Shown here one piece after another: positions 5,090 to 28,111 of a stretch of 38,581 nucleotides of DNA (position 1 is the first letter of the stretch; the number at the start of each line of letters is the position of its first letter). The position numbers and the translations under genes were made by a program. The DNA is taken from the sequence record SRR2962707_4449, one strand, 5' to 3'. Under the pieces are notes generated by a model. The model did no database searches. It was not told the origin of the DNA and saw nothing but the letters and a program-made list of their open reading frames with translations.

Positions 5090-8000
5090 TCATTCCTTTA
5101 CAATTTTTCCCTCATAAACGTCTCCTCCAATCACCTCCACGCGGATAAGGTATTGACCCTGCTTGAAATCGGAAATATTTAATGTCTCTGAGCCCTTGTC
5201 AAACGACCTTCTGAGTTTGCCTTCCAGGTCATAGAACCGTACGCTACGTATTAGTTCGGGACCTAGTCCTCTTAAATGAATTATATCCTGTGAAGGATTA
5301 GGATAAGCCAGTACCTGCCTAATATCCAATTTAGAATTTACCCTGATTACAGGTGAATGTTCAAATGAACCATCCACATCTACCATTCTCAGTCGGTAAT
5401 AATGAATACCTGCATCCACATTCATATCTACAAATGCATAGTCATGTTTGCGATTTGTATTTCCATTAGAGGCCACACTACCAATGGCATCAAATTTTTC
5501 TCCTTCTTCACTTCTTTCAATCAGAAAATAATCTGAGTTAACCTCCGTGAGCGTAGACCAGGAAAGCCGAATATCCCTATTCTCCGCTCTTCCCTTAAAA
5601 TCAATTAATTCCACTGGAAGTGGGTTGGCTTCCGCATCTGTAGAGTAAATAGAAAAATCACTAAAACTGGAAGTCTGACCTGTCACAGTAAAAGGGTCTG
5701 ATCCTGAGGCCCCCACATGTGTTAATTCCAACCAATCTGTTCCATCAAAACGAAGCACTCCTAAAGTAGAAGGATCAGCAGACTCATCACTACCTTCAAT
5801 CTGAAGTTCCACATCCGTTGTTCCCGGTGTTCCACTGATTACATCAATACCCCAATATCGGGTAGTCAGTGTGCTTTCTATATTTCCTGCAAGTTGGCTA
5901 CTAGCTGTTCCATGCAAATCTCGCATGTCACCAAAAGTACCTCCTCCTATGGGAGCGGACTCTCCAATATGCGATACTTCAAAAGTGGTTGCATTAGTAG
6001 GGGTTAACCCTACCGGGCGATAGGCTCCTTCGTCACCTGCCGGAAAAGTAAATAGTGTCGCAGCTCCAACCAATACTTCCATTTTACCCTCTACATGGTT
6101 GCTTGTCCCAAACGTTCCACTAATTGGATTGTTCAGGGTTAATGATGGGTCATCGTCCTTATTTCCATCATCCAAATCAATATCAAGGATGCCATTTGTT
6201 AAAGTCAAAGTATTATTGATCTCAAGGCTAGCCAAAACTGTTAATTGGCCTCCATTCAATGTTACATCATCAATGGTGGTGCCTGCCTCCGGATCGATGG
6301 CTATATTTTTACTTACCGTCAAGAACTCTGCGTAATCATCCTGAAGGATCGTCACTGTCCCGCCAGCATTCACAAGATCATGCCCTTCCTGCACCCGATC
6401 GCCGATGGTTTGTGAACTGAGAGGTCCGACAATTAATCCATCAAAATCACCTTGAAATCCAGGGGTTACCAGATCGGTATCTGTACCTGACGATAACCAG
6501 GGAGTAAAGTCATTATTTGAACCAACCAAAGATTGAATGGTGGCCTCATCTATCGTATTAAAATAATTTCCGGAAAGGTTTATGCCGGATGTCTCAGCAA
6601 TAAACCCATTTCCGTTTTGATCCAAATTGCTATCCGAAATAGTCAGACTGCCTCCGGAAAAAACACCGAGACCTGCCGTGTAATAGAAGCTTGGAATATC
6701 CTCAACCCCTGACAAGGTAGCTGGATTGGTTATAAATGAGTTGGAAACCGTCGCACTAGCGCCCTCTCTTACAATTACACTGAATCCGGCATTACCTCCT
6801 GCTGCAGTCGGATCAAATCCATTTCCTGTTATAGATGATTGGGAGATTGAAGCTACTGCATCTCCTCCTCTGACATAAATGCCTCTGTTTTCATTATCGT
6901 GAATATTGCAATTAATGATCGTTGCATCAATGCCGGCCCCATCAGACGAAGATGGAAAATCACCCACGACGATCCCTGAGTAGTTTGAGAGATCGTTGTT
7001 TACACCAGAAACATCAAGATTATTCATGGTAATGGTTAGATCATCGGTGGCTGTACCACCAGCTGTAAATACATAAACGGCTGTCTCTGTGTCAATATTG
7101 GTTACATCTGAATCAGTGGCAAATCCAGACATGGTCACATTTTGAATCGTTAATGATGATGGGTAGAAACCACCCACTCCATCTGTATTTGAAGGAATGA
7201 TCCCTGTCATACAACCAGTAAATGCTCCACCGTCAATAACGGCTTCCACACTCGACTGAAGGCCATAGGTGGATATCCCCAATGATGCATTTGAGATGTC
7301 ATTGTTGTTAAGGTCCAAATCCAGATCACCTGAGGTTAAAAATGCAGCTATGCCAATGCTTCCGTCAGTCGGACTGGTGGCGTCTTCTATGGCAAGCATT
7401 GAAATCACATTATCAGTAACACTTATGGTCCCGGTGCTCGCATTACCTACCACCAAACCGACGCTATTGGTGTAAACCACATTATTCTGAATAGATATTC
7501 CGGTATTGCCGGAAGCTACTACCCCGTTGGTTATGCTCGAGGTGGATGCATCGGTTCCGAGTTGAATGCCATCTATGGTCACTGTATCGGTGGTGATAGT
7601 AACTCCTACTCCTGAAACATCATTAATAGTTTCGGCTCCTCTTACACCATTTCCCGCAATTCCCACATTTGCTCCTTCGAGGGTAACAGGTGATGAGATA
7701 GTTAAATTTTCAGAATAGCTGCCTGCGGCAACAATGACCTGACCATTTTCCACTGCTATGTCCAGGCCAGATTGAATAAGCTGCTTTGGATCCGACTGCC
7801 GACCAAAGCCCGTATCATCAGGGGCAGAAGCATCTACATAGATAATTCCATTCTCGGCACCCAGAGACGCAAGTCCTCTTCGAAAATCAGCAACATCATC
7901 ATCCGTATCCTCACCCAAAGGAACCCTGAAGATAGCCTCATCAGCGATGCTTGTTGAGGCTCCACCAGTAACAGTGCCATCAGGAGCACCATCACCTGCA

Positions 8001-9547
8001 CCATCCCCCTCCTCATCATCTCCGATTTCCACATCATCAACGAGTGTGCCGTAAGGATCTGTCAAGGTTATATAAACATCGTTGTTTATTTCTTCAGTGC
8101 TAACCGGATTCCCCAAAATCAGATAGTCGCCAGCCACTGTATTATTAAAGCTTCCACTTCCGACATATACTGACTCAGTGAATGCACCTGAACTAGTTAA
8201 ATCACCACTAAAGTCAGTACCGTCAATGACGGCAATATTCCATTTTATCAAATTAAGACCTGAGGTTCCAATGTAAAGTTCTATCCACTCATCCGTAGAA
8301 CCGATACTTCCTCCGGGAGCTGGATCGGTAAAGCCACTAGCGCTCCAATCTTGCCGAGGCGACACCACAATTTCATTAATCAATACAATTCCCTGAGGGG
8401 AGTTATTGGCTCCAAGTGTGGCTCGTGTCTGTACAAAATCATCAGCCTCCACATCTGTATCCTGTCCATTGGGTATGCGGCAGACTGATTCGTCATCTGC
8501 ATCATTTGCATTGCCTGTAAACATGGTCCCGCTACCTAATGCAATCTCAACCTGATCGACAAGATTGTTATAGGCATCCCTTAAAACGATGGTCACCGAC
8601 TGGTTAATAGCTCCGGTGGTCATTGTTCCCAAAACCAGATAATCACCTGCGTCTGTATCAGAAAAAGTTCCACCAGTTTGTGAAATATAGTTTACAACCT
8701 GAAACGCTCCCCCAACTTCAAGTGAACCAGATTCATCCGTCCCGTCATTTAATTCTATCGTCCATTTGGTTAGGTTGAGTCCAGCATCTTCTATATAAAG
8801 CTCCACCCAGTCATCATCCGAATCAATTGTACCTCCTCCATCGCTTCCATCAAATCCATTGGTACTCCAATCTTGCTGAGGATCCACGATTGCTTCGTTT
8901 ATTAGTACTATTCCCGTAGGGGAATTATCGGTACCTAACGTCGACTGGGTCAACACAAAATCATCTAGCTCCACATCAGTATCCTGACCGTTTGGAATAC
9001 GGCAAACAGCTTCATCAGCTATTCCGGTGGATGCCCCGGTAAAAAATGTCCCGGAACCCGTAGCTATTTCTACCTGATCAACAACTGCCATGGTATTGTC
9101 TCTAAGAATGACAGTGATTGTGGCATCCATCGAGCCCGAGGTAGGCTGGCCCAATACTATATAATCTCCTGCATCTGTATCAACGAACGTTCCACCCGTT
9201 GCAGAAATGTAATTCATGGTGACAAAAGCACCCCCGGCATCAATAAGTCCTGATTCATCCGTTCCATCGTTCAGTTCGATCGTCCACCCTGTGAGGTTTG
9301 CCCCATTGGCGGTGACATACAATTCAATCCACTCGTCATTTGTATCAATGAGTCCCAATCCATCTGATCCATCAAATGCATTGGTGCTCCAATCCACTTG
9401 CGGATCAGTAACTACTTCATTAATTAATACTTGGGCGTGCAGCCCAAAGGATATTATGAATAAAAAGAGGATGCAGAGACTTCTCCTGGGAAAAGAAAAG
9501 AGAATTTGATCCACTACGACAAGGTGAAATTGCGTTCGTGAGTTCAT
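5090..9547 (-). CDS. Large acidic T9SS-secreted protein: 3 lamin-tail-like repeats, beta-helix region, type A C-terminal sorting domain
   Basis: Signal peptide; three VLINE...EWIELY repeats; IYVDA...IQSGLD beta-helix start; PLPVELIDF and YPNP...GQYLIRV...KIVKE tail. Confidence 0.85.
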   Translation of the reverse strand: MNSRTQFHLVVVDQILFSFPRRSLCILFLFIISFGLHAQVLINEVVTDPQVDWSTNAFDGSDGLGLIDTNDEWIELYVTANGANLTGWTIELNDGTDESGLIDAGGAFVTMNYISATGGTFVDTDAGDYIVLGQPTSGSMDATITVILRDNTMAVVDQVEIATGSGTFFTGASTGIADEAVCRIPNGQDTDVELDDFVLTQSTLGTDNSPTGIVLINEAIVDPQQDWSTNGFDGSDGGGTIDSDDDWVELYIEDAGLNLTKWTIELNDGTDESGSLEVGGAFQVVNYISQTGGTFSDTDAGDYLVLGTMTTGAINQSVTIVLRDAYNNLVDQVEIALGSGTMFTGNANDADDESVCRIPNGQDTDVEADDFVQTRATLGANNSPQGIVLINEIVVSPRQDWSASGFTDPAPGGSIGSTDEWIELYIGTSGLNLIKWNIAVIDGTDFSGDLTSSGAFTESVYVGSGSFNNTVAGDYLILGNPVSTEEINNDVYITLTDPYGTLVDDVEIGDDEEGDGAGDGAPDGTVTGGASTSIADEAIFRVPLGEDTDDDVADFRRGLASLGAENGIIYVDASAPDDTGFGRQSDPKQLIQSGLDIAVENGQVIVAAGSYSENLTISSPVTLEGANVGIAGNGVRGAETINDVSGVGVTITTDTVTIDGIQLGTDASTSSITNGVVASGNTGISIQNNVVYTNSVGLVVGNASTGTISVTDNVISMLAIEDATSPTDGSIGIAAFLTSGDLDLDLNNNDISNASLGISTYGLQSSVEAVIDGGAFTGCMTGIIPSNTDGVGGFYPSSLTIQNVTMSGFATDSDVTNIDTETAVYVFTAGGTATDDLTITMNNLDVSGVNNDLSNYSGIVVGDFPSSSDGAGIDATIINCNIHDNENRGIYVRGGDAVASISQSSITGNGFDPTAAGGNAGFSVIVREGASATVSNSFITNPATLSGVEDIPSFYYTAGLGVFSGGSLTISDSNLDQNGNGFIAETSGINLSGNYFNTIDEATIQSLVGSNNDFTPWLSSGTDTDLVTPGFQGDFDGLIVGPLSSQTIGDRVQEGHDLVNAGGTVTILQDDYAEFLTVSKNIAIDPEAGTTIDDVTLNGGQLTVLASLEINNTLTLTNGILDIDLDDGNKDDDPSLTLNNPISGTFGTSNHVEGKMEVLVGAATLFTFPAGDEGAYRPVGLTPTNATTFEVSHIGESAPIGGGTFGDMRDLHGTASSQLAGNIESTLTTRYWGIDVISGTPGTTDVELQIEGSDESADPSTLGVLRFDGTDWLELTHVGASGSDPFTVTGQTSSFSDFSIYSTDAEANPLPVELIDFKGRAENRDIRLSWSTLTEVNSDYFLIERSEEGEKFDAIGSVASNGNTNRKHDYAFVDMNVDAGIHYYRLRMVDVDGSFEHSPVIRVNSKLDIRQVLAYPNPSQDIIHLRGLGPELIRSVRFYDLEGKLRRSFDKGSETLNISDFKQGQYLIRVEVIGGDVYEGKIVKE
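7850..9433 (-). repeat. Three tandem ~174-180 aa intragenic domain repeats
   Basis: VLINE starts at 9430, 8908 and 8386 (522-nt period); shared DWS, (E/D)W(I/V)ELY and R(I/V)P.G.DTD...DF. Confidence 0.9.
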
Positions 9548-12628: not shown

Positions 12629-12703
12629 TTGGCTAGGCGATTGTTTCCCTAAAGATAAAGATTTGATTGATTTAATGAATCAGAAGAAATACGGAGTATG
12701 CAT

Positions 12704-12747
12704 AAAAAACAAAAAGGGTGAAAAATCGAGAACGATTTTCACCCTTC
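12704..12747 (-). terminator. Strong intrinsic terminator
   Basis: GAAGGGTGAAAATCG-TTCT-CGATTTTTCACCCTTT followed by TTGTTTTTT. Confidence 0.85.
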
Positions 12748-12946
12748 TAATACTGCAACTGCCGTAGCAACTGCAATATTTCAAACTACTGTTCGGATTC
12801 CCTTCGGATGCGCCTTCGAGGGTTGCCCCTGCGACCGCTTTTCCTCGGCAGTCATTCAAACTTCGTTGACCCAAGCCAAACTTAAAATCAACTTCCCTTT
12901 GTCTGACTGGAAACCTTCGGTTTCAGTTTCCTATCCCTTGTTTGAT
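12704..12946 (-). ncRNA. Candidate structured non-coding RNA of about 240 nt, family not recognised
   Basis: Promoter upstream, terminator downstream, several hairpins with GNRA/UNCG loops and G-U pairs that form only on the minus strand. Confidence 0.65.
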
Positions 12947-12950
12947 GATA

Positions 12951-12981
12951 CTAATGTAGACCATAATTTTACATCTCCAAA
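12951..12981 (-). promoter_or_regulatory. Bacteroidota housekeeping promoter (-33/-7)
   Basis: TTTG-N19-TACATTAG versus consensus TTTG-N19-21-TAnnTTTG (1 mismatch). Confidence 0.7.
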
Positions 12982-12997
12982 CTTTGTAACCGTCTAG

Positions 12998-13040
12998 TTT
13001 TCAACAAGTTTTCCTTCACTTTTCCACCTATTTATCCACA
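12998..13040 (+). promoter_or_regulatory. Array of DnaA-box-like 9-mers
   Basis: TTTTCAACA 12998, TTTTCCTTC 13009 (degenerate), TTTTCCACC 13020, perfect TTATCCACA 13032. Confidence 0.55.
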
Positions 13041-13044
13041 TCAA

Positions 13045-13770
13045 TCAGGCGACTACTTTTAGCTTCTCAGCCAATAGCTCTCTTATCTCAGGAATAGAAT
13101 TGTAAAGCTGCTCATATGATCCAGTGATAAAGTATTCTGTCTGGAATACATCCTTCCGATATGAAGTATCCAACATGTGATCGATGCTGAATTCATGCTT
13201 AGGTGGCTCCTCACTTAGTGAGAACTTAGTTTCACCGGCAGAAGAGAGTATCCCGGCCCCATATATCCTTAGACCAGCTGGATCCTGAATCAAACCAAAC
13301 TCCACTGTAAACCAGTATACACGTGACAATAGTTGAATGGCATAGTTATTTCCAACATACTCCAAACCAATCTTACTCAACTCTTCCAAAAAATTCACAA
13401 AATGCTGATTGGTCAAGAGCGGAACATGAGCAAACACATCGTGAAACATGTCCGGTTCTTCCAGATAATCCAATTCTTTCATCTTTCTCAACCAAGTAGT
13501 AGCGGGAAACCTACGGTTAGCCATTAGCTCAAAAAAGGTGTAGTCAGGTACGATACCCGGAACTACGGCCAATTGCCACCCTGTGGTGTCCTGAAGGATT
13601 TGATTGGTTTCCTTAAAATCAGGGATAATTCCTGTTTCAAAGTTGGCAATCTTCAATCCCTCACGATAGGCTTCACAAGCATGAGTGGGGAATTGTTTCA
13701 TTTGGCGATCAAATAAGATCTTCCAAACCTCAAAGTCTTCCGTCGTGTAGTTTTCGTAAATCTGTCTCAT
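13045..13770 (-). CDS. phhA: Phenylalanine 4-monooxygenase
   Basis: YLEEPDMFHDVFAHVP, YWFTVEFGL, IYGAGILSS.GE. Confidence 0.92.
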   Translation of the reverse strand: MRQIYENYTTEDFEVWKILFDRQMKQFPTHACEAYREGLKIANFETGIIPDFKETNQILQDTTGWQLAVVPGIVPDYTFFELMANRRFPATTWLRKMKELDYLEEPDMFHDVFAHVPLLTNQHFVNFLEELSKIGLEYVGNNYAIQLLSRVYWFTVEFGLIQDPAGLRIYGAGILSSAGETKFSLSEEPPKHEFSIDHMLDTSYRKDVFQTEYFITGSYEQLYNSIPEIRELLAEKLKVVA

Positions 13771-13772
13771 AC

Positions 13773-14780
13773 TTAATTGGCTATCATATTATTTAATATT
13801 CTTAATTTTTCTATCAAACTGGATGCTTCATTATAATCCAGCGTTTGCTGTCCATCCGAGAAGGCCTCCTCCGGTCGGCAGTGTGTTTCAAAGATCACAC
13901 CATCGGCCCCAGCCACTGTAGCAGCCATCGCCACAGGCCCTACATGATCCCGGATGCCAATTCCGTGTGATGGATCAGCTATTACAGGAAGATGTGATTT
14001 CTCTTTCAGAATCGGAATGGCATTGATATCGAACGTGTTTCGTGAAGCTTTTTCATAAGTTCTGATGCCTCGCTCGCAAAGAAGTAAGCGCTCATTTCCA
14101 CCAGAAAAAATATACTCCGCACTATGTAGGAGTTCATCAATTGTGCCTGAGATACCGCGCTTTAACAAAACGGGCTTATCCACTTTTCCCAGCTCATCAA
14201 GCAGGTTGTAATTCTGTGTATTTCGGGCGCCAACCTGAAAAATATCTACATAGTCGTGCATCTCTTCGATTTGAGATACCTGCATTACTTCAGAAATGAT
14301 TTTAATTCCATTTTCCCGAGCTAGCTTATGCCACAGCTGAAGCCCTTTTATCCCTAAACCTCGGAAAGAATAGGGTGAACTTCTTGGCTTATACACTCCC
14401 CCCCGCATAATCCTGATATCATTCGTTTTGAGAAAGTTGATGGTATCCATTATGTTCTCTTCTCCCTCAATACTGCAAGGTCCGGCCATCAATGAAAAAT
14501 ACCCTCCACCTATTTTCACTTCATCACCAAGATCAATAACCGTAGGGTTTACTTTCCATTTAGTGGAAACCAGCTTATAATCATCAGAAACTACATGGAT
14601 ATCTTTAATACCCTTGAGGTGGCCGATTTTTCGAATATCAAACTGCTTTTTACCTGTTCCAATTAAGTAGCTCCCGTACTGTGTTTGCACATGCGTGGTT
14701 TTGTATTTCAATACATGAAGTTCTCTTTCCACAGAATTCAGCACTTCTCCATTTACTCCTTTTTCTAATTGTATGATCAT
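13773..14780 (-). CDS. aroF: DAHP synthase type I-beta with N-terminal regulatory domain
   Basis: AGPCSIE, RGGVYKPRSSPYSFRG, QVGARNTQN, LCERGIRT, ADPSHG. Confidence 0.9.
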   Translation of the reverse strand: MIIQLEKGVNGEVLNSVERELHVLKYKTTHVQTQYGSYLIGTGKKQFDIRKIGHLKGIKDIHVVSDDYKLVSTKWKVNPTVIDLGDEVKIGGGYFSLMAGPCSIEGEENIMDTINFLKTNDIRIMRGGVYKPRSSPYSFRGLGIKGLQLWHKLARENGIKIISEVMQVSQIEEMHDYVDIFQVGARNTQNYNLLDELGKVDKPVLLKRGISGTIDELLHSAEYIFSGGNERLLLCERGIRTYEKASRNTFDINAIPILKEKSHLPVIADPSHGIGIRDHVGPVAMAATVAGADGVIFETHCRPEEAFSDGQQTLDYNEASSLIEKLRILNNMIAN

Positions 14781-15565
14781 GACCCTTTAATTCCTTTTAC
14801 AAATTCTATAATGCCGCTATTCGATGCATCCTCACTTAGCTGCTTGATGAAGGCACTGCCGATAATTGCCCCGTTGGCATACTCACAGGCCGTCTCAAAT
14901 GTCTCCTTGTCAGAAATGCCAAACCCGATCAATTGTGGGTTTTTTAACTTCATTGATTTGATTCGCTGATAATATGCTGTCTGTCCGACCTGAATTCCCT
15001 TTTTTGCTCCTGTAATGCTTGAAGACGAAACCACATAAATGAATCCACTGGACTGCTCATCTATCTGCCTGATGCGCTGCTCAGAAGTATTTGGACTAAT
15101 GAGAAAGATGTTGTGAAGACCCTTTTCCAGAAATCTATCCTGATAGCTTTCTAGGTATTCCATCATCGGTAAGTCCGGAACAATGACTCCATCTACTCCC
15201 ACTTTAGCACATGAATCACAGAATCGATCTAATCCATACTGAATGATTGGATTGACATACCCCATAAGTAATACCGGAATCGAAACGTGTTCTCGTAAAG
15301 AACTCAACTGCTCGAAAAGTAACTTGATCGTCATTCCATTTTCAAGGGCTTTCTGAGAGCTGTTTTGAATAGTGGGTCCATCAGCTACCGGGTCAGAAAA
15401 TGGCATACCTACCTCCAGCATATCAGCTCCAGCTTCCTCCAGCGATTTGGCAATATGCAGGGTATCGTCAAGGTTGGGAAACCCGGCTGTGAAATAGACG
15501 TTCAGAATATTTCGTTTCTGCTGAAATACCCGATCTATTCGATTCATAACTAATTGCTTATTCAT
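14777..15565 (-). CDS. trpA: Tryptophan synthase alpha chain
   Basis: YFTAGFP, EVGMPFSDPVADGPTIQ, GFGIS, IIGSA; start ATG 15565 or 15547. Confidence 0.95.
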   Translation of the reverse strand: MNKQLVMNRIDRVFQQKRNILNVYFTAGFPNLDDTLHIAKSLEEAGADMLEVGMPFSDPVADGPTIQNSSQKALENGMTIKLLFEQLSSLREHVSIPVLLMGYVNPIIQYGLDRFCDSCAKVGVDGVIVPDLPMMEYLESYQDRFLEKGLHNIFLISPNTSEQRIRQIDEQSSGFIYVVSSSSITGAKKGIQVGQTAYYQRIKSMKLKNPQLIGFGISDKETFETACEYANGAIIGSAFIKQLSEDASNSGIIEFVKGIKGS

Positions 15566-15567
15566 AA

Positions 15568-16752
15568 TTAATACTTCCCCCATTTGATGTAGGTCTCTAA
15601 ATCCTTGTCTCCCCTGCCTGATAAATTCACAACAACCACTTCCTCTTTACCAAATTGTCTGTTTCCAAAAACCGCGAGTGCATGCGCAGATTCAATGGCC
15701 GGAATGATTCCTTCGAGCTTGCTCAATTCTACTCCCGCAATCATCGCTTCTTCATCGGTAATGCTGTAAAATTCAGCTCGACCAGCGTCGAAAAGATGCG
15801 CGTGAATGGGTCCAATGCCAGGATAATCCAACCCTGCAGAAATACTGTATGGCTCTACTACCTGCCCATCCTCTGTTTGCATGAGAAGTGTCTTACTTCC
15901 ATGAAGCACACCCGATTTACCGAGTGCTGTTGTAGCAGCTGACTTTCCTGAGTTAACTCCTAAACCCGCTGCTTCAGCAGCAATCAAATTGACTGATTCA
16001 TCATCCAGAAAGTGATAGAAAGCTCCGGCCGCATTGCTTCCTCCTCCTACACATGCAATCACATGATTAGGAGCATTTTTACCTTCAACCTCCTGCAACT
16101 GCTGCTGTATCTCCATGCTGATCACTGACTGAAAGCGTGCAACCATGTCAGGGTATGGATGAGGTCCAACTACGGAACCAATAATATAGTGCGTGTCATT
16201 GGGATTATTGATCCAGTGACGCATCGCTTCATTGGTCGCGTCTTTCAGTGTTTTGCTACCGGATGTGGCAGGCCGAACTTCAGCACCCAGAATCTTCATC
16301 CGTTCCACATTCGGTTTTTGCCGTGTCATGTCAACCTCACCCATGTATACAATACATTCCATTCCCATCAGCGCACAAACGGTAGCTGTTGCTACTCCAT
16401 GCTGGCCAGCTCCAGTCTCAGCAATAATCTTTGACTTACCCAGCCGCTTTGCTAGCAAAACCTGCCCGATGGTATTGTTTACTTTGTGCGCTCCGGTATG
16501 GCAAAGGTCCTCACGCTTTAGATAGATTTTTGTATTGTACTTCTCCGAAAGTCTGGAGGCATAATAGAGCGGTGTTGGTCTGCCCACATACGTTTTTAGT
16601 AAATGTTCAAACTCATTTTTAAAATCTTCTGACTCAATGATCTCCAGATAGTTTTGCCTTAACTCCTCCACATTCGGATAGAGCATTTCGGGAATGTACG
16701 CTCCTCCAAACTTCCCGTAATATCCTTTCTCGTTAACATTGAACCTGCTCAT
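15568..16752 (-). CDS. trpB: Tryptophan synthase beta chain
   Basis: [41 protein letters not shown]. Confidence 0.97.
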
Positions 16753-17780
16753 AAAACTGATTTTAGCTCTTTTAACTTCTGCAAATCCTTTTTAGCTGGT
16801 TCAAATTCAAATCGACTGTTCACATCAATTCCCACAAGCTGCTTCACCTCCATCGCCTTGATCTTTTCAATGTCCTCCAATTGCACACCTCCGCTTAGAA
16901 GGAAGGGTGTTTCCAGATTATAATTCCTAAGAATGTTCCAATCAAAATGGCGTCCCGAACCACCATAGTTGATGGAAGCCGTATCAAAAAGGAAGTAGTC
17001 GGCTATGCCTTGATATTGCTTTGCGACATAGGGGATCGTGTCCATGACACGAAATACCTTGATGATTTTCAACCCTCGTTCTTTCAGTTTTTTTGCAAAG
17101 GTCAGATCCTCATCCCCATGCAATTGAATATATTCAAGACCGTATTTGTCCGCTAATTCCACAATTCGCTCCAATGATTCATTGACAAATACCCCCACTT
17201 TGTGAATGCTGATTGGAATGCGCATGATGAAATCCTCATCCATCTCACCGACAAAGCGTGGAGACTTTGGATAAAAAATGAACCCAATAAAATCCGGCTT
17301 AATATCTATTAAGCCTCTAATATTTTCGGGATCACGCATGCCACATACTTTTAGTTTCAGGTTTTTTGACTCTCCCCTGAATTCTTCGAATTCTTTCCCC
17401 TCTCTTTCAAGAGAGGGGTTAGGGGTGAGTTGAGCCGCAAGCCTTTCATCCACGCTCATCCAATCATTTAGGATTTCTTCGTTTTTAAACCGAAGCACTT
17501 TATAGCCTAAATCAAAAAGTATATCCTCTCTAATCTTATCATATTCAATTTGTTGAGTATGAATTCCACCGTCGACCTCAATAATTAGTTTATGTTCATG
17601 ACAGTAGAAATCAGCAATAAAATAGGACCTATCCTCATGCTCAATTATGAATTGGCGGTTGAACTTTAATCCCTTGAACTTCCGATTTCTAACATTCGCC
17701 CAAAAAATCTTCTCAGCGGGTGTTTGATTCTTTCGTAGGGATCTTGCGTACTCTAATATCTGCGAATATTTCATAAGCAT
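16749..17780 (-). CDS. trpF: DUF559 (Vsr-like) endonuclease fused in frame to phosphoribosylanthranilate isomerase
   Basis: N-terminal [44 protein letters not shown]; from 17360 [43 protein letters not shown]; start ATG 17780/17774 or GTG 17807. Confidence 0.9.
17368..17433 (-). repeat. REP-like palindromic element forming the DUF559-TrpF linker
   Basis: TCAACTCACCCCTAACCCCTCTCTTGAAAGAGAGGGG plus a partial inverted arm TTCAGGGGAGAGT (17370-17382). Confidence 0.8.
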
Positions 17781-17803
17781 CAGATTTATAATGATCAATC
17801 GTT

Positions 17804-17834
17804 TCACTCTTTCTCAAGAGAGGTAGTGAGTTGA
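17804..17834 (-). repeat. Degenerate copy of the same element at the trpC 3' end
   Basis: TCAACTCACTACCTCTCTTGAGAAAGAG aligns with the 17433 copy, with short deletions in the C runs. Confidence 0.7.
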
Positions 17835-18619
17835 TTTAATTGTCTAATAAATTCCTTAGCAGCCTTTTCAGGCCGACCGGTTTGCATAAATGTTTCTCCA
17901 ATCAAAAATCCTTCATAGCCGTACTCCTTTAATTCCTTAATGGTTTTAGGGTTTGAAATCCCACTTTCAGAAACCTTCACAAAATCAGATGGGATAGAGG
18001 ACGATAGATCTTTAGATGTCTGAATGTTTGTTTCAAAAGTCTTCAGGTTACGATTGTTTACACCGATCAGGTCGACCCCTGTGTCGGTAATGCTCCTTTT
18101 GAGTTCATCTTCATTATGCACTTCCAGCAGCACTTCCATACCTAAACTCTGAGCGAGTGAACCTAACTTTTCAATTTCACTTTTATTCAATACTGCTGCT
18201 ATCAAAAGGATTACATCCGCACCTAATGATTTCGATTCGATGACTTGATATTCATCGATCATAAAATCTTTACGAAGAATGGGACAAAAATTAAAGGAAC
18301 GAGCCACTTTCAGATCTTCCGGATCGCCTCCGAAATACTTCTTGTCTGTCAAAACAGATAGTCCGGATGCTCCCGCCTGCATATATCCTATTGATGCTCT
18401 CTCCACTGATACATGCTTATTCATCTCACCTTTAGAGGGCGATTTTCGCTTAATCTCAGCGATAACCCCAGACTTGTCTTCGCGTTTCAGATATTTCTTC
18501 AATGAAACCGGTTGCCCCTCAAAGAAGATGCTTTTCTCGAGTAATTTGGTTGGATAAAGCTCTTTACTGGATGCAACTTCCTTTCGCTTGTTGGCTACTA
18601 TTTCTGATAAGATGTCCAT
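17804..18619 (-). CDS. trpC: Indole-3-glycerol phosphate synthase
   Basis: IAEIKRKSPSKG, SVLTD..F.G, LRKDF, LLEVH, GVNNRNL, SESGI, LIGE. Confidence 0.95.
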   Translation of the reverse strand: MDILSEIVANKRKEVASSKELYPTKLLEKSIFFEGQPVSLKKYLKREDKSGVIAEIKRKSPSKGEMNKHVSVERASIGYMQAGASGLSVLTDKKYFGGDPEDLKVARSFNFCPILRKDFMIDEYQVIESKSLGADVILLIAAVLNKSEIEKLGSLAQSLGMEVLLEVHNEDELKRSITDTGVDLIGVNNRNLKTFETNIQTSKDLSSSIPSDFVKVSESGISNPKTIKELKEYGYEGFLIGETFMQTGRPEKAAKEFIRQLNQLTTSLEKE

Positions 18620-19607
18620 TAATTATTGATGCTTAAAAAGTTCTTAAATGATTGAAGTGCTTTACCACTATTTAGCGATTCCCTGGCCTCCTCAACACCC
18701 TCCATTATGGAGGTTTGGTTCGTTGTGGCTATGGCCAAACCCGCATTAGCAAGAACCGCATGATTTTGACCTTCAGCCCCCTCACCTCCAAGGATTTTAT
18801 TGAAAATGTCTGCCGCTTCTTTAATGGTCTCTCCTCCGTGAAGTTCTTCTTGAACCAACAGGGCAAACCCTATATTATTCGGGGAGACAAGCTCCTCAGA
18901 TCGATTTGAAATCAACTTGAAGTCACTGGTTAGTGACACTTCATCATATCCATCCAAAGAATGAACAATTGAAAAATTCTTATCGGTGTTTTGGTATAGA
19001 TAGCCATAAAGACGAGCCAACTCCAGGCTAAAAACACCAACCATTTGATTGGGTGGAAACGCCGGATTTACCATTGGTCCCAGCATATTGAAGAACGTTT
19101 TCACTCCCAGTTCTTTACGAATTGGCGCCACGTTTTTCATGGCAGGATGGAACAATGGCGCATGCATAAAACAGATCCCGGAAGCATCAATTGAACGTTT
19201 CATCTTGTCGGCATCTCCTGAAAATTTTACACCCAGGTATTCCAGCACATTGGACGAACCGCTAACTGATGAAACCCCATAATTTCCATGTTTAGCGACA
19301 TGCACTCCGGCTCCAGCTACAACAAATGAGGATATCGTTGAGATATTAAAGGTGTTTTTACCATCACCACCTGTTCCACACACATCGATCGTATTATAAC
19401 CCTCCAGGTTTACTGGATTACACAGCTCCAGCATGGCGTCCCTAAAGCCTTCTAACTCCTGAACCCGAATGGCACGCATCAGGTAGACGGTCAGAAAAGA
19501 CGCAATTTGACTGTTGTTGTATTGGCCCTTTGCAAGCCCGGTTAATACCTCTTTGGCCTCCTCTCGTGAGAGTGTCTGGTTATTTATCAGTCTATCTAAA
19601 ATTTCCT

Positions 19608-19611
<4 letters not shown>
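18619..19611 (-). CDS. trpD: Anthranilate phosphoribosyltransferase
   Basis: DVCGTGGDGKNTFNIST, AKHGN, FFNMLGP, DGYDEVS. Confidence 0.95.
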
Positions 19612-20176
<565 letters not shown>

Positions 20177-20180
<4 letters not shown>

Positions 20181-21565
20181 AATCCTTCTGCTTCTTCTAT
20201 CGCGTGCTCCAGGGCACTCACTTTATTAAATACTTCCTGAAGTTCGTTTTCTGGTTTAGACTGTGCTACCACCCCTGCGCCGGCTTGAAACTTCAGAACA
20301 TTGTTTTTGCTTTGAAAGCTACGGATCATAATGGCGTGATTAAAGTTGCCTTCAAAGTCCATAAAACCTACCGCTCCACCATAAAATCCACGAGGTGTTC
20401 TCTCATTTTCCTCGATAATTTCCATCGCTCTGATTTTAGGTGCGCCGGAGAGCGTTCCTGCGGGAAAAGTTTCAGCCACAATATCCATGAAAGAAGAGCC
20501 TTTCTTTACCTGCCCTGTGACTTTAGAAACAAGGTGAATCACATGTGAGTAGTATTGCACCTCTTTATATGTTTCCACCTTCACATCATCACAACTTCTG
20601 CTTAGATCATTTCGGGCTAAGTCTACTAACATCACATGCTCTGAATCCTCTTTGGGATCTTCCATTAGTTTGGCCGCCAGCTCTGAATCTGCTTTATCAT
20701 TACCTGTGCGACGAAATGTTCCGGCTATCGGATGAATCTCTGCTTTCCCGTTTTTCAATACGATCTGAGCTTCTGGAGAGGATCCAAAAATTCTGAAACT
20801 ACCATAATCGAAATAGAATAAATACGGTGAAGGGTTCACAGATCTTAGTGCCCGGTATACTTGAAAATCATCGCCTTGAAACGGGATTTGAAAATTTCGT
20901 GATAACACTACCTGGAATACATCTCCGACATGGCAATGGTGTATTCCCTTCTTCACCATCTCAAGGTATTCTTTGTCTGTCTTATTGGACGTTTTTTCAC
21001 CAGTGGTTTTGAAAGGATAGCCCGGAATATTACGCTGCTGAATGAGCGAAGTGACCTCTTCAAATAACTGATCATCCGGTTCATCCACATATGCCTCTAT
21101 GATGTGGCATTCATTCTTGAAATGATCCAATGCTATGATGAACTTGAATAAATGATATTGGGCAAGTGGAATCGTTTTGTCCTTATTCTTGAGAGCTAAA
21201 TCTCCAAACTCTGCCTTAGCATCATAACTGAAATAGCCAAAGAGACCAGATTTAATGTACCCTTCAGATTCCCCTGACTGAAAAGATGATGTAAAACCTT
21301 CTATCTCTTCGGCCAGATTCCCCAACGAATATTTGTGCACATTCTCTCCCGGCAGCTTTCTCTCAACCTCTTTCCCATTGGTTCTAATGTAGGCGAGGGG
21401 TGCGCAGCAGATATACGAAAAACTATTCTCTGCTCCGTGGTAATCAGAACTCTCGAGGAGAAATGAATTAGCAAACCGATCCCTGAGTTTCAGATAGATG
21501 CTCACAGGCGTGATGGTATCAGCTAAAATCGTTCGTTCGCGTGTTTTAATACTTATTTTACTCAT
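20177..21565 (-). CDS. trpE: Anthranilate synthase component I
   Basis: LLES, NPSPY, GSSPE, EHVMLVDLARND, FPAGTLSGAPK; ATG 21565. Confidence 0.95.
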
Positions 21566-21571
21566 GGCTAG

Positions 21572-21606
21572 AAACAAAAAAACCCTGACGATAACTGTCA
21601 GGGTTT
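21572..21606 (-). terminator. trp attenuator terminator
   Basis: AAACCCTGAC-AGTTATC-GTCAGGGTTT followed by TTTTGTTT just upstream of trpE. Confidence 0.85.
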
Positions 21607-21634
21607 AGATATTTTTAAACACAGCAGCGGCTCG

Positions 21635-21688
21635 TCAACAATCAGAATTGTCGAAATGCCACCACCAATATTTGTTTGTCATAATCAT
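21635..21688 (-). CDS. trpL: trp operon leader peptide MIMTNKYWWWHFDNSDC
   Basis: Three consecutive TGG codons in a 17-codon ORF upstream of the terminator and trpE; absent from the ORF track. Confidence 0.9.
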   Translation of the reverse strand: MIMTNKYWWWHFDNSDC

Positions 21689-21810
21689 TTGAATCGCTAA
21701 ACTAATCGTAATTGTTTTTAAAAAACAAGCAGTCACTAAAAATTGTTATTTTTTTTATGACTGGTCGCAGAAGTTTATCGCGATTAAGGTTTTTAAACTA
21801 AATTTCCGTC

Positions 21811-27675: not shown

Positions 27676-27683
27676 AGTTCATA

Positions 27684-27715
27684 ACCCACCGCTAATCCCC
27701 TCCAAGGAGGGGACT
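27684..27715 (+). repeat. REP-like palindrome, copy A
   Basis: ACCCACCGCTAATCCCCTCCAAGGAGGGGACT. Confidence 0.85.
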
Positions 27716-27880
27716 TATTGCGGTGATAAAGAGTTGTTGCCTATCCTTCAGTCTCTTCGCTTAAAGCCAGATCAAATTTTATTAAGTAAATCTAACTCCC
27801 TACCCAGATTGAACAATTCTTAATAGAAACTTGCTTTCACTCCTTCCAAGATTGAGGAATTCTTTTGTTAAGGATGCTTT

Positions 27881-27911
27881 ACTCCCCTCCCTGGAGGGGC
27901 CGGGGGTGGGT
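27881..27911 (-). repeat. REP-like palindrome, copy B
   Basis: Minus strand ACCCACCCCCGGCCCCTCCAGGGAGGGGAGT. Confidence 0.85.
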
Positions 27912-27932
27912 CTCGATCCAAAGCGTAATGGA

Positions 27933-27954
27933 AGATCCCGGAATAAATCCGGGA
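27933..27954. repeat. Palindrome of a different type
   Basis: AGA-TCCCGGA-ATAAA-TCCGGGA. Confidence 0.6.
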
Positions 27955-27955
27955 A

Positions 27956-28057
27956 CTAAATCTCATTCCAAAGCAACACTTCACTTAAGGTCATATTCTT
28001 CCTCAGCTTTTTTGCCAGGGGAACTAACTTTGGGTTGTAAGGAATGATTTTACGCAT
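27956..28057 (-). pseudogene. Truncated DUF559 endonuclease (N-terminal 33 codons)
   Basis: MRKIIPYNPKLVPLAKKLRKNMTLSEVLLWNEI* aligns with [16 protein letters not shown] of the TrpF-fused copy; absent from the ORF track. Confidence 0.8.
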
Positions 28058-28070
28058 CTTTAACAATTTA

Positions 28071-28102
28071 ATCCACCCCTAAATCCCCTCCAAGGAGGGG
28101 CT
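28071..28102 (+). repeat. REP-like palindrome, copy C
   Basis: ATCCACCCCTAAATCCCCTCCAAGGAGGGGCT. Confidence 0.85.
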
Positions 28103-28111
28103 ACAGAAAAA

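Follow-up and report, generated by a model that had tools for sequence, protein, structure and literature searches.

REP and REPIN repeats have as their partner RAYT, a tyrosine transposase of the HUH (Y1) type. For BoxC/PIT triplex repeats, to our knowledge, no partner enzyme has become known since the 1990s, and we know of no established role for DUF559, a very large protein family. Triplex motifs have been linked to rearranged loci, as stated in the available portion of a report on such repeats (PMC4666352). Homing endonucleases such as I-Bth0305I (PMC3239194) and the endonucleases of "fractured genes" (PMC2677866) are, as far as the accessible parts of these papers describe them, encoded by selfish-looking genes located in or between host genes, which occur sporadically and leave clean empty sites. 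Here we analyse a stretch of 38,581 nt (sequence record SRR2962707_4449, hereafter the window), in which a DUF559 gene flanked by structured repeats is joined in frame to trpF, encoding phosphoribosylanthranilate isomerase (PRAI), inside the tryptophan operon. We consider it likely that a repeat-flanked cassette captured the start of trpF, and that a single two-domain protein of 341 residues is the sole PRAI of its carriers.

According to this explanation, a cassette of about 467 nt would have been inserted in a single event, in an ancestor shared by a few species that belong to one marine genus of Bacteroidota (the protein of one member is named Ekhidna sp. in one source). Its cargo, a DUF559 nuclease gene of about 120 codons placed between two double-hairpin repeats of about 66 nt, would have landed on the ATGA overlap formed by the trpC stop and the trpF start codons, removing the trpF ATG. 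Ribosomes would start at the DUF559 ATG (position 17774), cross the repeat as a flexible 22-residue linker and continue into TrpF. The fusion protein would supply TrpF activity, since TrpF tolerates N-terminal extensions, as in TrpC-TrpF enzymes. The nuclease domain may still be active and co-expressed with the trp operon under attenuation, and may be functionally paired with the flanking hairpin/triplex repeats, having once moved the cassette or now maintaining it. The cassette would be hard to lose, because nonsense mutations, frameshifts or imprecise deletions within it would abolish TrpF.

The fusion frame extends from position 16749 to 17807 on the minus strand and is free of stops over 352 codons. 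A Pfam search of its product assigned residues 17–125 to DUF559 (PF04480; E = 6.3e-32; profile positions 3–106 of 109; 110.1 bits against a curated cut-off of 20.6) and residues 153–347 to PRAI/TrpF (PF00697; E = 5.9e-35; profile positions 2–189 of 193; 121.2 bits against a cut-off of 22.7). NCBIfam assignments concur. The DUF559 domain, a Vsr-like nuclease of the PD-(D/E)xK type (about 114 residues, 12–125; 17433–17774, minus strand), is identified by Pfam, conserved residues, AlphaFold2 (AF2) models, fold matches and substitution rates. It is followed by a linker of 22–24 residues (126–149) and by the TrpF domain (about 203 residues; 16749–17360, minus strand), which has lost its own start codon and is identified by Pfam, invariant residues, AF2 and comparison of the junctions. 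A previous sequence-only reading of this stretch had proposed a single stop-free frame made of about 115 residues of DUF559, a linker of about 25 residues and a TrpF of 203 residues. Pfam, NCBIfam and the read-out of the frame bear out this arrangement, with the linker measured at 22–24 residues.

All of the 11 invariant and 13 near-invariant DUF559 residues found in an alignment of 70 sequences are present in the fusion, and the DUF559 motifs named in the sequence-only reading, each of which is present, all fall among the family-invariant residues. The invariant set includes an acidic/His cluster (D66, E77, D79, H83, D90, R93 and N109, in P0001 numbering). By analogy with Vsr, we take residues of the D66/E77/D79/H83 type to form the active site. 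Similarly, each of the 23 invariant TrpF columns of a 63-sequence alignment is retained, including Cys155 and Asp275, which are presumably catalytic.

The fusion was found in the window, in genomes G001, G023 and G066 (the four fusion genomes) and in a fifth sequence, the metagenome protein P0004 (342 residues); genome-wide statements on carriers rest on G001, G023 and G066. The sequence-only reading placed the gene at 16749–17807. The open frame indeed covers this span, but the GTG at 17807 is not conserved among the fusion genomes. Codon 12, the ATG at 17774, is the sole ATG kept in all four; free-standing relatives begin at the same point, and the public gene calls P0002 and P0003 begin at this methionine. 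Hence the GTG is probably not a real start, and the comparison points to ATG 17774 and a product of 341 residues. At the position of the ancestral trpF ATG, the codon is now TCA in the window and TTA in G023 and G066. Further on in the TrpF part, the first ATG in frame (M157) falls downstream of the invariant Cys155, and no ATG, GTG or TTG occurs between residue 120 and Cys155. The PRAI family is represented by a single copy in each of G001, G023 and G066, and this copy is the fused one; TrpF activity in these genomes must therefore come from the fusion frame.

A survey of 42 genomes of the genus identified the fusion in three (G001, G023 and G066, with identities of 94%, 92% and 84%, respectively), a plain TrpF of about 206–238 codons in 38, and a partial match in one. 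One open frame spans both domains in G001 and G066, which are single-contig genomes, as well as in G023 and P0004. Contigs from four runs belonging to four studies, one of which may be the window's own sample, carry only substitutions and no indels over 16700–17900. Contig X5 spans this entire interval with 122 substitutions and no gaps, and a second contig, reaching from DUF559 across the linker into TrpF (first third), has 38 substitutions and no gaps. The three genomes have no stop or frameshift between the domains. An assembly or sequencing artefact, in which a missed stop or frameshift would separate a DUF559 gene from trpF, was considered, as the window itself is a single assembly. Nothing else was found in its favour; the same open frame recurs in four other sequences, the contigs lack indels and no trpF start codon remains from which a separate gene could be read. 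The probability of such an artefact is negligible.

Eighteen plain trpF loci of the genus provide the empty site for comparison. The trpC stop codon overlaps the trpF ATG in 16 of them (15 as ATGA and 1 as TAATG); of the remaining two, one has a short spacer and the other, G025, carries a gene-less insert of about 120 nt. The insert in G025 (locus L012) consists of GC hairpin repeats only, lies exactly at the trpC/trpF junction and leaves the trpF ATG in place. Occupied sites hold a cassette of about 467 nt (17366–17832 in the window), made of a 5' repeat, the DUF559 gene and a 3' repeat. Left and right junctions occur at identical positions in all four fusion genomes, and the presence of the same insert with the same borders argues for one insertion event. 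In plain relatives, TrpC ends about 9 residues before the TrpC of the window; in G023 and G066, TrpC reads about 15 codons into the intact 5' repeat. From these alignments, the rearrangement is best described as a single cassette insertion at the ancestral overlap of the trpC stop and the trpF start, accompanied by loss of the trpF ATG. The existence of empty and occupied sites within one genus agrees with the sequence-only reading, which had placed a nuclease-repeat cassette at the 5' end of trpF and had raised the question of plain trpF in relatives, now seen in 38 of 42 genomes. That reading did not include the destruction of the trpF start codon, the derivation of the linker from a translated repeat, or the large number of other host genes described below.

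The two flanking repeats differ in their state of preservation. The 5' repeat (17781–17832, minus strand) is decayed in the window and in G001, where the first hairpin is broken, as evidenced by alignment with the intact copies of G023, G066 and free cassettes. The 3' repeat (17366–17431, minus strand), which features two hairpins within an outer stem, is translated as the linker. G030, G010 and G021 have a copy of the same unit of about 66 nt on each side of a free-standing DUF559 gene, and G029 has one on the 3' side of its gene. These genes are the nearest free-standing relatives within the genus (57–69% identity). Their open reading frame (ORF) ends directly ahead of the 3' repeat in G030 and G021, and runs into it before terminating in G010 and G029. 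The trp copy has no stop ahead of the 3' repeat, and the repeat remains open in frame as 22 residues. In G066 and P0004, the second linker hairpin is a variant known from free cassettes that is one codon longer and preserves the frame. The linker evolves faster than the domains (0.6–0.7 relative to G066) and is predicted to be disordered, with low AF2 confidence (predicted local distance difference test, pLDDT, 34–65).

On the plus strand, the linker DNA contains a class II intrastrand-triplex motif at 17397–17430, detected by an ITxF-style scan. Class II rules, in the part of the source available, allow stems of 6–15 nt, loops of 1–6 nt, and GGC, AAT and TAT triads (Holder et al. 2015, PMC4666352). 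The motif is formed by an 8-nt pyrimidine block, a 6-nt loop, an 8-nt purine block, TTA and an 8-nt mirror block, with no mismatches; the scan returned no class II matches in 100 shuffled sequences. By eye, GC-rich hairpins, most of them with a third, mirror-like block, adjoin each of the five further DUF559 genes that stand alone in G001. This repeat subtype is present in 1 copy in the window, 1 in G001, 4 in G023, 2 in G066, 12 in G030 and 2 in G029. Elsewhere in the window, the intergenic region 27676–28111 contains three GC hairpins spaced by 187 and 201 nt, which do not adjoin a DUF559 gene. Two of these (27884–27909, plus strand; 28073–28100, minus strand) fit the class II rules, and the three hairpins may be miniature forms related to the cassette repeats but lacking a gene.

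The same sequence features bear on whether one protein or two are produced. TrpF could start internally, at M117, at V119 or at the CTG of L150, or be freed by proteolysis of the linker. M117 and V119 lie about 30 codons 5' of the TrpF core in four of the five fusions, the linker is predicted to be disordered, and initiation in Bacteroidota does not need a strong Shine-Dalgarno sequence. However, P0004 has neither M117 nor V119, the CTG is CTA in G001, G023 and G066, and purifying selection on DUF559 (see below) shows that its codons are read. Moreover, since no stop occurs between the domains in any of the five fusion sequences, ribosomes translating DUF559 must continue into TrpF. The production of two separate proteins is thus quite unlikely, and a single chain is the reading that we prefer.

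The ratio of nonsynonymous (dN) to synonymous (dS) substitution rates, estimated by the Nei-Gojobori method over DUF559 residues 12–125, is 0.115 between the window and G001, 0.075 between the window and G023, and 0.091 between G001 and G023. Relative to G066, synonymous sites are saturated; dN is 0.107 for DUF559 and 0.099 for TrpF. For the free-standing orthologues of G030, G010 and G021, dS is likewise saturated. DUF559 varies at 38 of its 114 positions across the five fusion proteins, but at none of the 24 family-conserved ones (Fisher p = 1.4e-5). These comparisons are good evidence that the nuclease domain is kept under purifying selection; TrpF, too, is under such selection.

When modelled by AF2 with its own alignment, DUF559 reaches a pLDDT above 90 over residues 1–115. 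In the full-length model, TrpF exceeds 93 and the DUF559 part scores low; as only 5 alignment rows cover it, the low value is not read as disorder. The best match of the DUF559 model in a Foldseek search of the PDB is a DUF559 structure, 3hrl (E = 1.2e-6; template modelling (TM) score of 0.84 on the target). Second, and first among characterised enzymes, comes 3r3p, the catalytic domain of the homing endonuclease I-Bth0305I (E = 6e-4; TM 0.76 on the target). Further fold matches include PvuRts1I/AbaSI, Bax1, the R2 endonuclease and Vsr (1cw0).

The nuclease could nevertheless be a dead passenger, in which selection acts only on an open frame and a foldable N-terminal extension, with no cutting activity left. 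TrpF depends on the DUF559 start codon, and the loss of the trpF ATG means that the fusion frame must stay open. In addition, the repeat subtype, nearly single-copy in genomes with the fusion, gives no hint of current spread, and inheritance appears vertical, as dN values of DUF559 and TrpF relative to G066 are similar. A plain spacer, in contrast, would be expected to shrink or drift, and the dN/dS values of 0.08–0.12 are as low as those of many enzymes. Change is also absent from the 24 family-conserved residues, which include the acidic and His residues of active-site type, as opposed to 38 of the 90 others. On balance, a dead passenger seems rather unlikely, and we favour a fusion in which the nuclease may have remained functional.

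Several points weigh against the explanation as a whole. That both domains are translated as one chain is deduced from sequence, and internal initiation at M117 or V119, or cleavage of the linker, could add a shorter TrpF. Nuclease activity is attributed to this kind of DUF559 protein on the grounds of its sequence and predicted fold. The low dN/dS and the unchanged residues could partly reflect the need for a well-folded N-terminal domain, and, with four or five sequences, the catalytic residues by themselves give no statistical power. The rarity of the repeat subtype in the fusion genomes (1, 4 and 2 copies) indicates that they are not a place where the cassette proliferates. In trees of TrpF and TrpC, the window clusters with G001 and G023 (support 99 and 95), but G066 falls into a polytomy that includes three plain genomes, instead of being placed as sister to the other three. 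Consequently, the distribution may reflect one gain followed by loss or transfer. The identical junctions favour a single origin.

The fusion lies between trpC and trpB in an operon ordered trpE-G-D-C-(DUF559-F)-B-A, in which all genes are on one strand (minus) and mostly overlap by a few bases. Pfam domains support trpE (anthranilate synthase component I; 20177–21565, probable ATG at 21565; Chorismate_bind and Anth_synt_I_N), trpG (glutamine amidotransferase; 19608–20180; GATase), trpD (anthranilate phosphoribosyltransferase; 18619–19611; Glycos_transf_3 and its N-terminal domain) and trpC (indole-3-glycerol phosphate synthase, IGPS; 17804–18619; IGPS at residues 4–256), the last 10 or so codons of which derive from the decayed 5' repeat. 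Downstream of the fusion are trpB (15568–16752; PALP), whose start overlaps the stop of the fusion, trpA (14777–15583; Trp_syntA) and, at the operon end, a gene for 3-deoxy-D-arabino-heptulosonate 7-phosphate synthase (13773–14780; DAHP_synth_1). Beyond the latter, the trp cluster closes with a gene for a biopterin-dependent aromatic amino acid hydroxylase (13045–13770, minus strand). Further along the window, a 1485-residue ORF at 5090–9547 (minus strand) contains internal direct repeats with a period of 522 nt and about 70% identity (8330–9298).

Upstream of trpE, a leader peptide ORF of 17 codons plus stop (21635–21688, minus strand; MIMTNKYWWWHFDNSDC) includes three consecutive Trp codons and is kept in G001, G023 and G066. 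It is followed by a hairpin and T-run resembling an intrinsic terminator (21572–21606, minus strand; 10 pairs in a terminator scan), the putative attenuator terminator, the T-run of which stops a few bases 5' of the trpE ATG. The leader region (21565–21690) folds with z = -4.0, and its minimum free energy fold contains the terminator and a stem pairing the Trp codons. A short ORF with tandem Trp codons, then a terminator, upstream of the first biosynthetic gene is the layout of trp-type attenuators. An Rfam scan of the window at gathering thresholds gave no matches, and the leader matches no Rfam family. Between trpE and trpA, the operon strand has six weak terminator-like hairpins, which are not in excess over shuffled sequences and do not resemble the leader terminator. 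Leader and terminator are common to all four fusion genomes, and, since they are conserved at the head of the operon, control of the nuclease by attenuation is plausible. The sequence-only reading had placed the nuclease under Trp attenuation; the expected leader and terminator architecture is indeed there in all four genomes, and the control of expression itself is deduced from it.

DUF559 cassettes of the same lineage occur at other loci of the genus. In G030, G010 and G021, a DUF559 gene lies between a gene for a 241-residue protein and an OsmC-like gene; the same locus is empty in G001 (spacer of 69 nt) and G066 (55 nt). In G029, a DUF559 copy has a PnuC-like gene on one side and a NadR-like kinase gene on the other, and in the close relatives P0005–P0008, DUF559 is fused to the NadR-like kinase. 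Solo repeats are present in G021 and at the trp junction of G025. Directly upstream of the free cassette in G030 (locus L027, approximately 1380–1440), another DUF559 ORF was observed, degraded and represented by its 3' end, which suggests that cassettes may occur in tandem.

Comparison of the window with its relatives also revealed a recombination mosaic. The window and G001 share 97–100% identity between about 20100 and 17314 (from trpG to the linker inclusive); in trpF, identity is 74–86%, with dS of 0.06 up to the linker versus 1.4 in trpF. In G023, a divergent patch is located just upstream of the cassette (18100–17807). Throughout the region, segments of at least 95% identity alternate with segments below 89%, with about one switch per 850 nt (5094–31016 against G001; 12700–20800 against G023). 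Switches number 29 in 24.5 kb for G001 and 20 in 17.4 kb for G023, a pattern that, from the alignments, indicates frequent homologous exchange with more distant lineages. Because the mosaic extends over the whole region, breakpoints adjacent to the cassette are not counted as evidence for nuclease-induced conversion. Co-conversion of the flanks driven by the nuclease was considered and is not supported, as a switch near the cassette is expected by chance in about 1 in 5 cases.

The sequence-only reading had likened the insertion to the hitchhiking of homing endonucleases. Genes of this class lie in a self-splicing intron or intein, or stand free beside the site that their product cleaves. Sporadic presence with intact empty sites, as in homing, is found at the trp locus (3 of 42 genomes and the window) and at the second locus (3 occupied, 2 empty). 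Searches of the fusion protein against Pfam and NCBIfam detected no intein family, Rfam detected nothing in the window, and the frame is continuous, with no intron. The analogy is partly supported. The fold match to I-Bth0305I and presence/absence polymorphism at two loci speak for it; the lack of an intron or intein and the low copy number of the repeat subtype in the fusion genomes speak against it, and breakpoints are no commoner next to the cassette than elsewhere in the mosaic.

Fusions of DUF559 are not confined to TrpF. A stand-alone protein of about 120 residues is the normal form, with 300 matches at E <=1e-10 among 321 short candidates. When the portion made of DUF559 and the linker was searched against proteins of 193–616 residues, 58 DUF559 matches were obtained, all but 5 of which carry another Pfam domain. 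Partners are AA_kinase (20 matches), His_biosynth-type (7), PRAI (6), Trp_syntA (5), AAA_28 (4) and Type ISP (3), in addition to 8 partners seen once each. The match lists are biased by the word index and by the length window, so the seeming preference for amino-acid operons is only a lead. We inspected 19 fusion sequences, and all 16 outside the trp-fusion clade feature linkers resembling translated GC hairpins. The question of DUF559 fusions to other housekeeping genes, left by the sequence-only reading, thus has a positive answer: there are many, and those inspected have linkers of a GC-hairpin-like kind.

Some of these proteins have different architectures. For instance, the opposite order, TrpF-repeat-DUF559, is seen in other lineages (P0013, P0019, P0024, P0063, P0086 and P0089), in some cases with several translated repeats, and in P0132 DUF559 is inserted in the middle of the TrpF barrel. 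P0132 and the reverse-order fusions appear to have arisen independently, with the same gene as host. In the leucyl-tRNA synthetase gene of G001 (locus L002, G001:C1:1774676-1777984), an in-frame DUF559 occupies residues 369–475 of a partial ORF, between the catalytic core and the editing domain, and is preceded by the repeat subtype of the trp linker. Long open frames around DUF559 matches suggest the same arrangement in G023, G020 and G044.

The recurrence of DUF559-TrpF fusions in other lineages, in both orders and even within TrpF, could be taken as a sign of adaptive domain fusion, in which DUF559 was recruited to a tryptophan-linked role such as regulation, scaffolding or nucleic-acid binding; conservation over four species at low dN/dS fits such a role. 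In contrast, the same type of cassette is joined to unrelated enzymes (AA_kinase, HisF-like, TrpA, NadR-like kinase, IspD and leucyl-tRNA synthetase), always through repeat-derived linkers, and 38 of the 42 genomes of the genus do well with a plain TrpF. Fusion to many unrelated enzymes points to the mechanics of insertion rather than to a function specific for tryptophan, which makes adaptive recruitment very improbable. Under the reading that we favour, capture of trpF by an inserted cassette, the trp fusion is a clearly resolved case of a behaviour widespread among DUF559 cassettes.

The genus constitutes a natural experiment, as the same junction is found empty, with a gene-less repeat (G025) and with the full cassette (four genomes). 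If the explanation holds, a housekeeping protein can incorporate a mobile nuclease gene with no splicing of an intron or intein, the nuclease can stay under selection in this state, and a structured DNA repeat can act as a protein linker. The fusion would also represent a soluble, naturally expressed form of DUF559 with an assayable tag, namely PRAI activity. For annotation, the locus is a warning that a "DUF559 domain-containing protein" may conceal the only copy of a biosynthetic enzyme. A broader proposal is that DUF559 and hairpin/triplex repeats form an undescribed class of selfish cassettes, in which the nuclease is the missing partner of BoxC/PIT repeats, start-codon capture renders the trp cassette undeletable, and an active nuclease is controlled by tryptophan starvation. 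Taken together, this is doubtful; if true, DNA cutting or recombination would rise during tryptophan starvation.

Judging from titles and the openings of abstracts, we found no published account of DUF559-repeat cassettes or DUF559-TrpF fusions. The described systems each share some features with the locus. Vsr-like ("EDxHD") homing endonucleases, both free-standing and carried by introns, such as I-Bth0305I (PDB 3r3p; PMC3239194, as far as the available part of the paper shows), have the same small Vsr-like nuclease fold, and the sporadic occurrence and clean empty sites of the selfish-looking genes mentioned at the outset recur here. Unlike homing endonucleases, the insert is spliced neither from RNA nor from protein, but appears to be translated within the host enzyme, and the trp cassette, known here from its sequence, is flanked by structured DNA repeats.

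With respect to the BoxC/PIT/TM(ECO) triplex repeats, the 3' repeat of the cassette fits class II, and its TTA second loop corresponds to type A as defined in the available part of PMC4666352. The block sequence differs from the consensus of E. coli TM(ECO) given there, which places the cassette repeat in the same structural class but in another sequence family. In addition, E. coli triplex motifs are, in the part of that source available, always intergenic and have no partner gene (PMC4666352), whereas the cassette motif is translated, as deduced from the open frame, and flanks a nuclease gene.

As in the REP/REPIN-RAYT system, short palindromic repeats stand on either side of one small enzyme gene, and gene-less copies exist (G025 and G021). 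Unlike RAYT, the enzyme is a predicted PD-(D/E)xK nuclease, DUF559 being the sole non-TrpF domain, and the repeat is low-copy. Finally, the fusion resembles the bifunctional TrpC-TrpF and TrpF-TrpB proteins (NCBIfam NF006945 and NF010376) in that TrpF has an N-terminal partner and is kept in the trp operon. It differs from them in that the partner is a nuclease foreign to the pathway, trpC is still a separate gene, and the linker is a translated DNA repeat.

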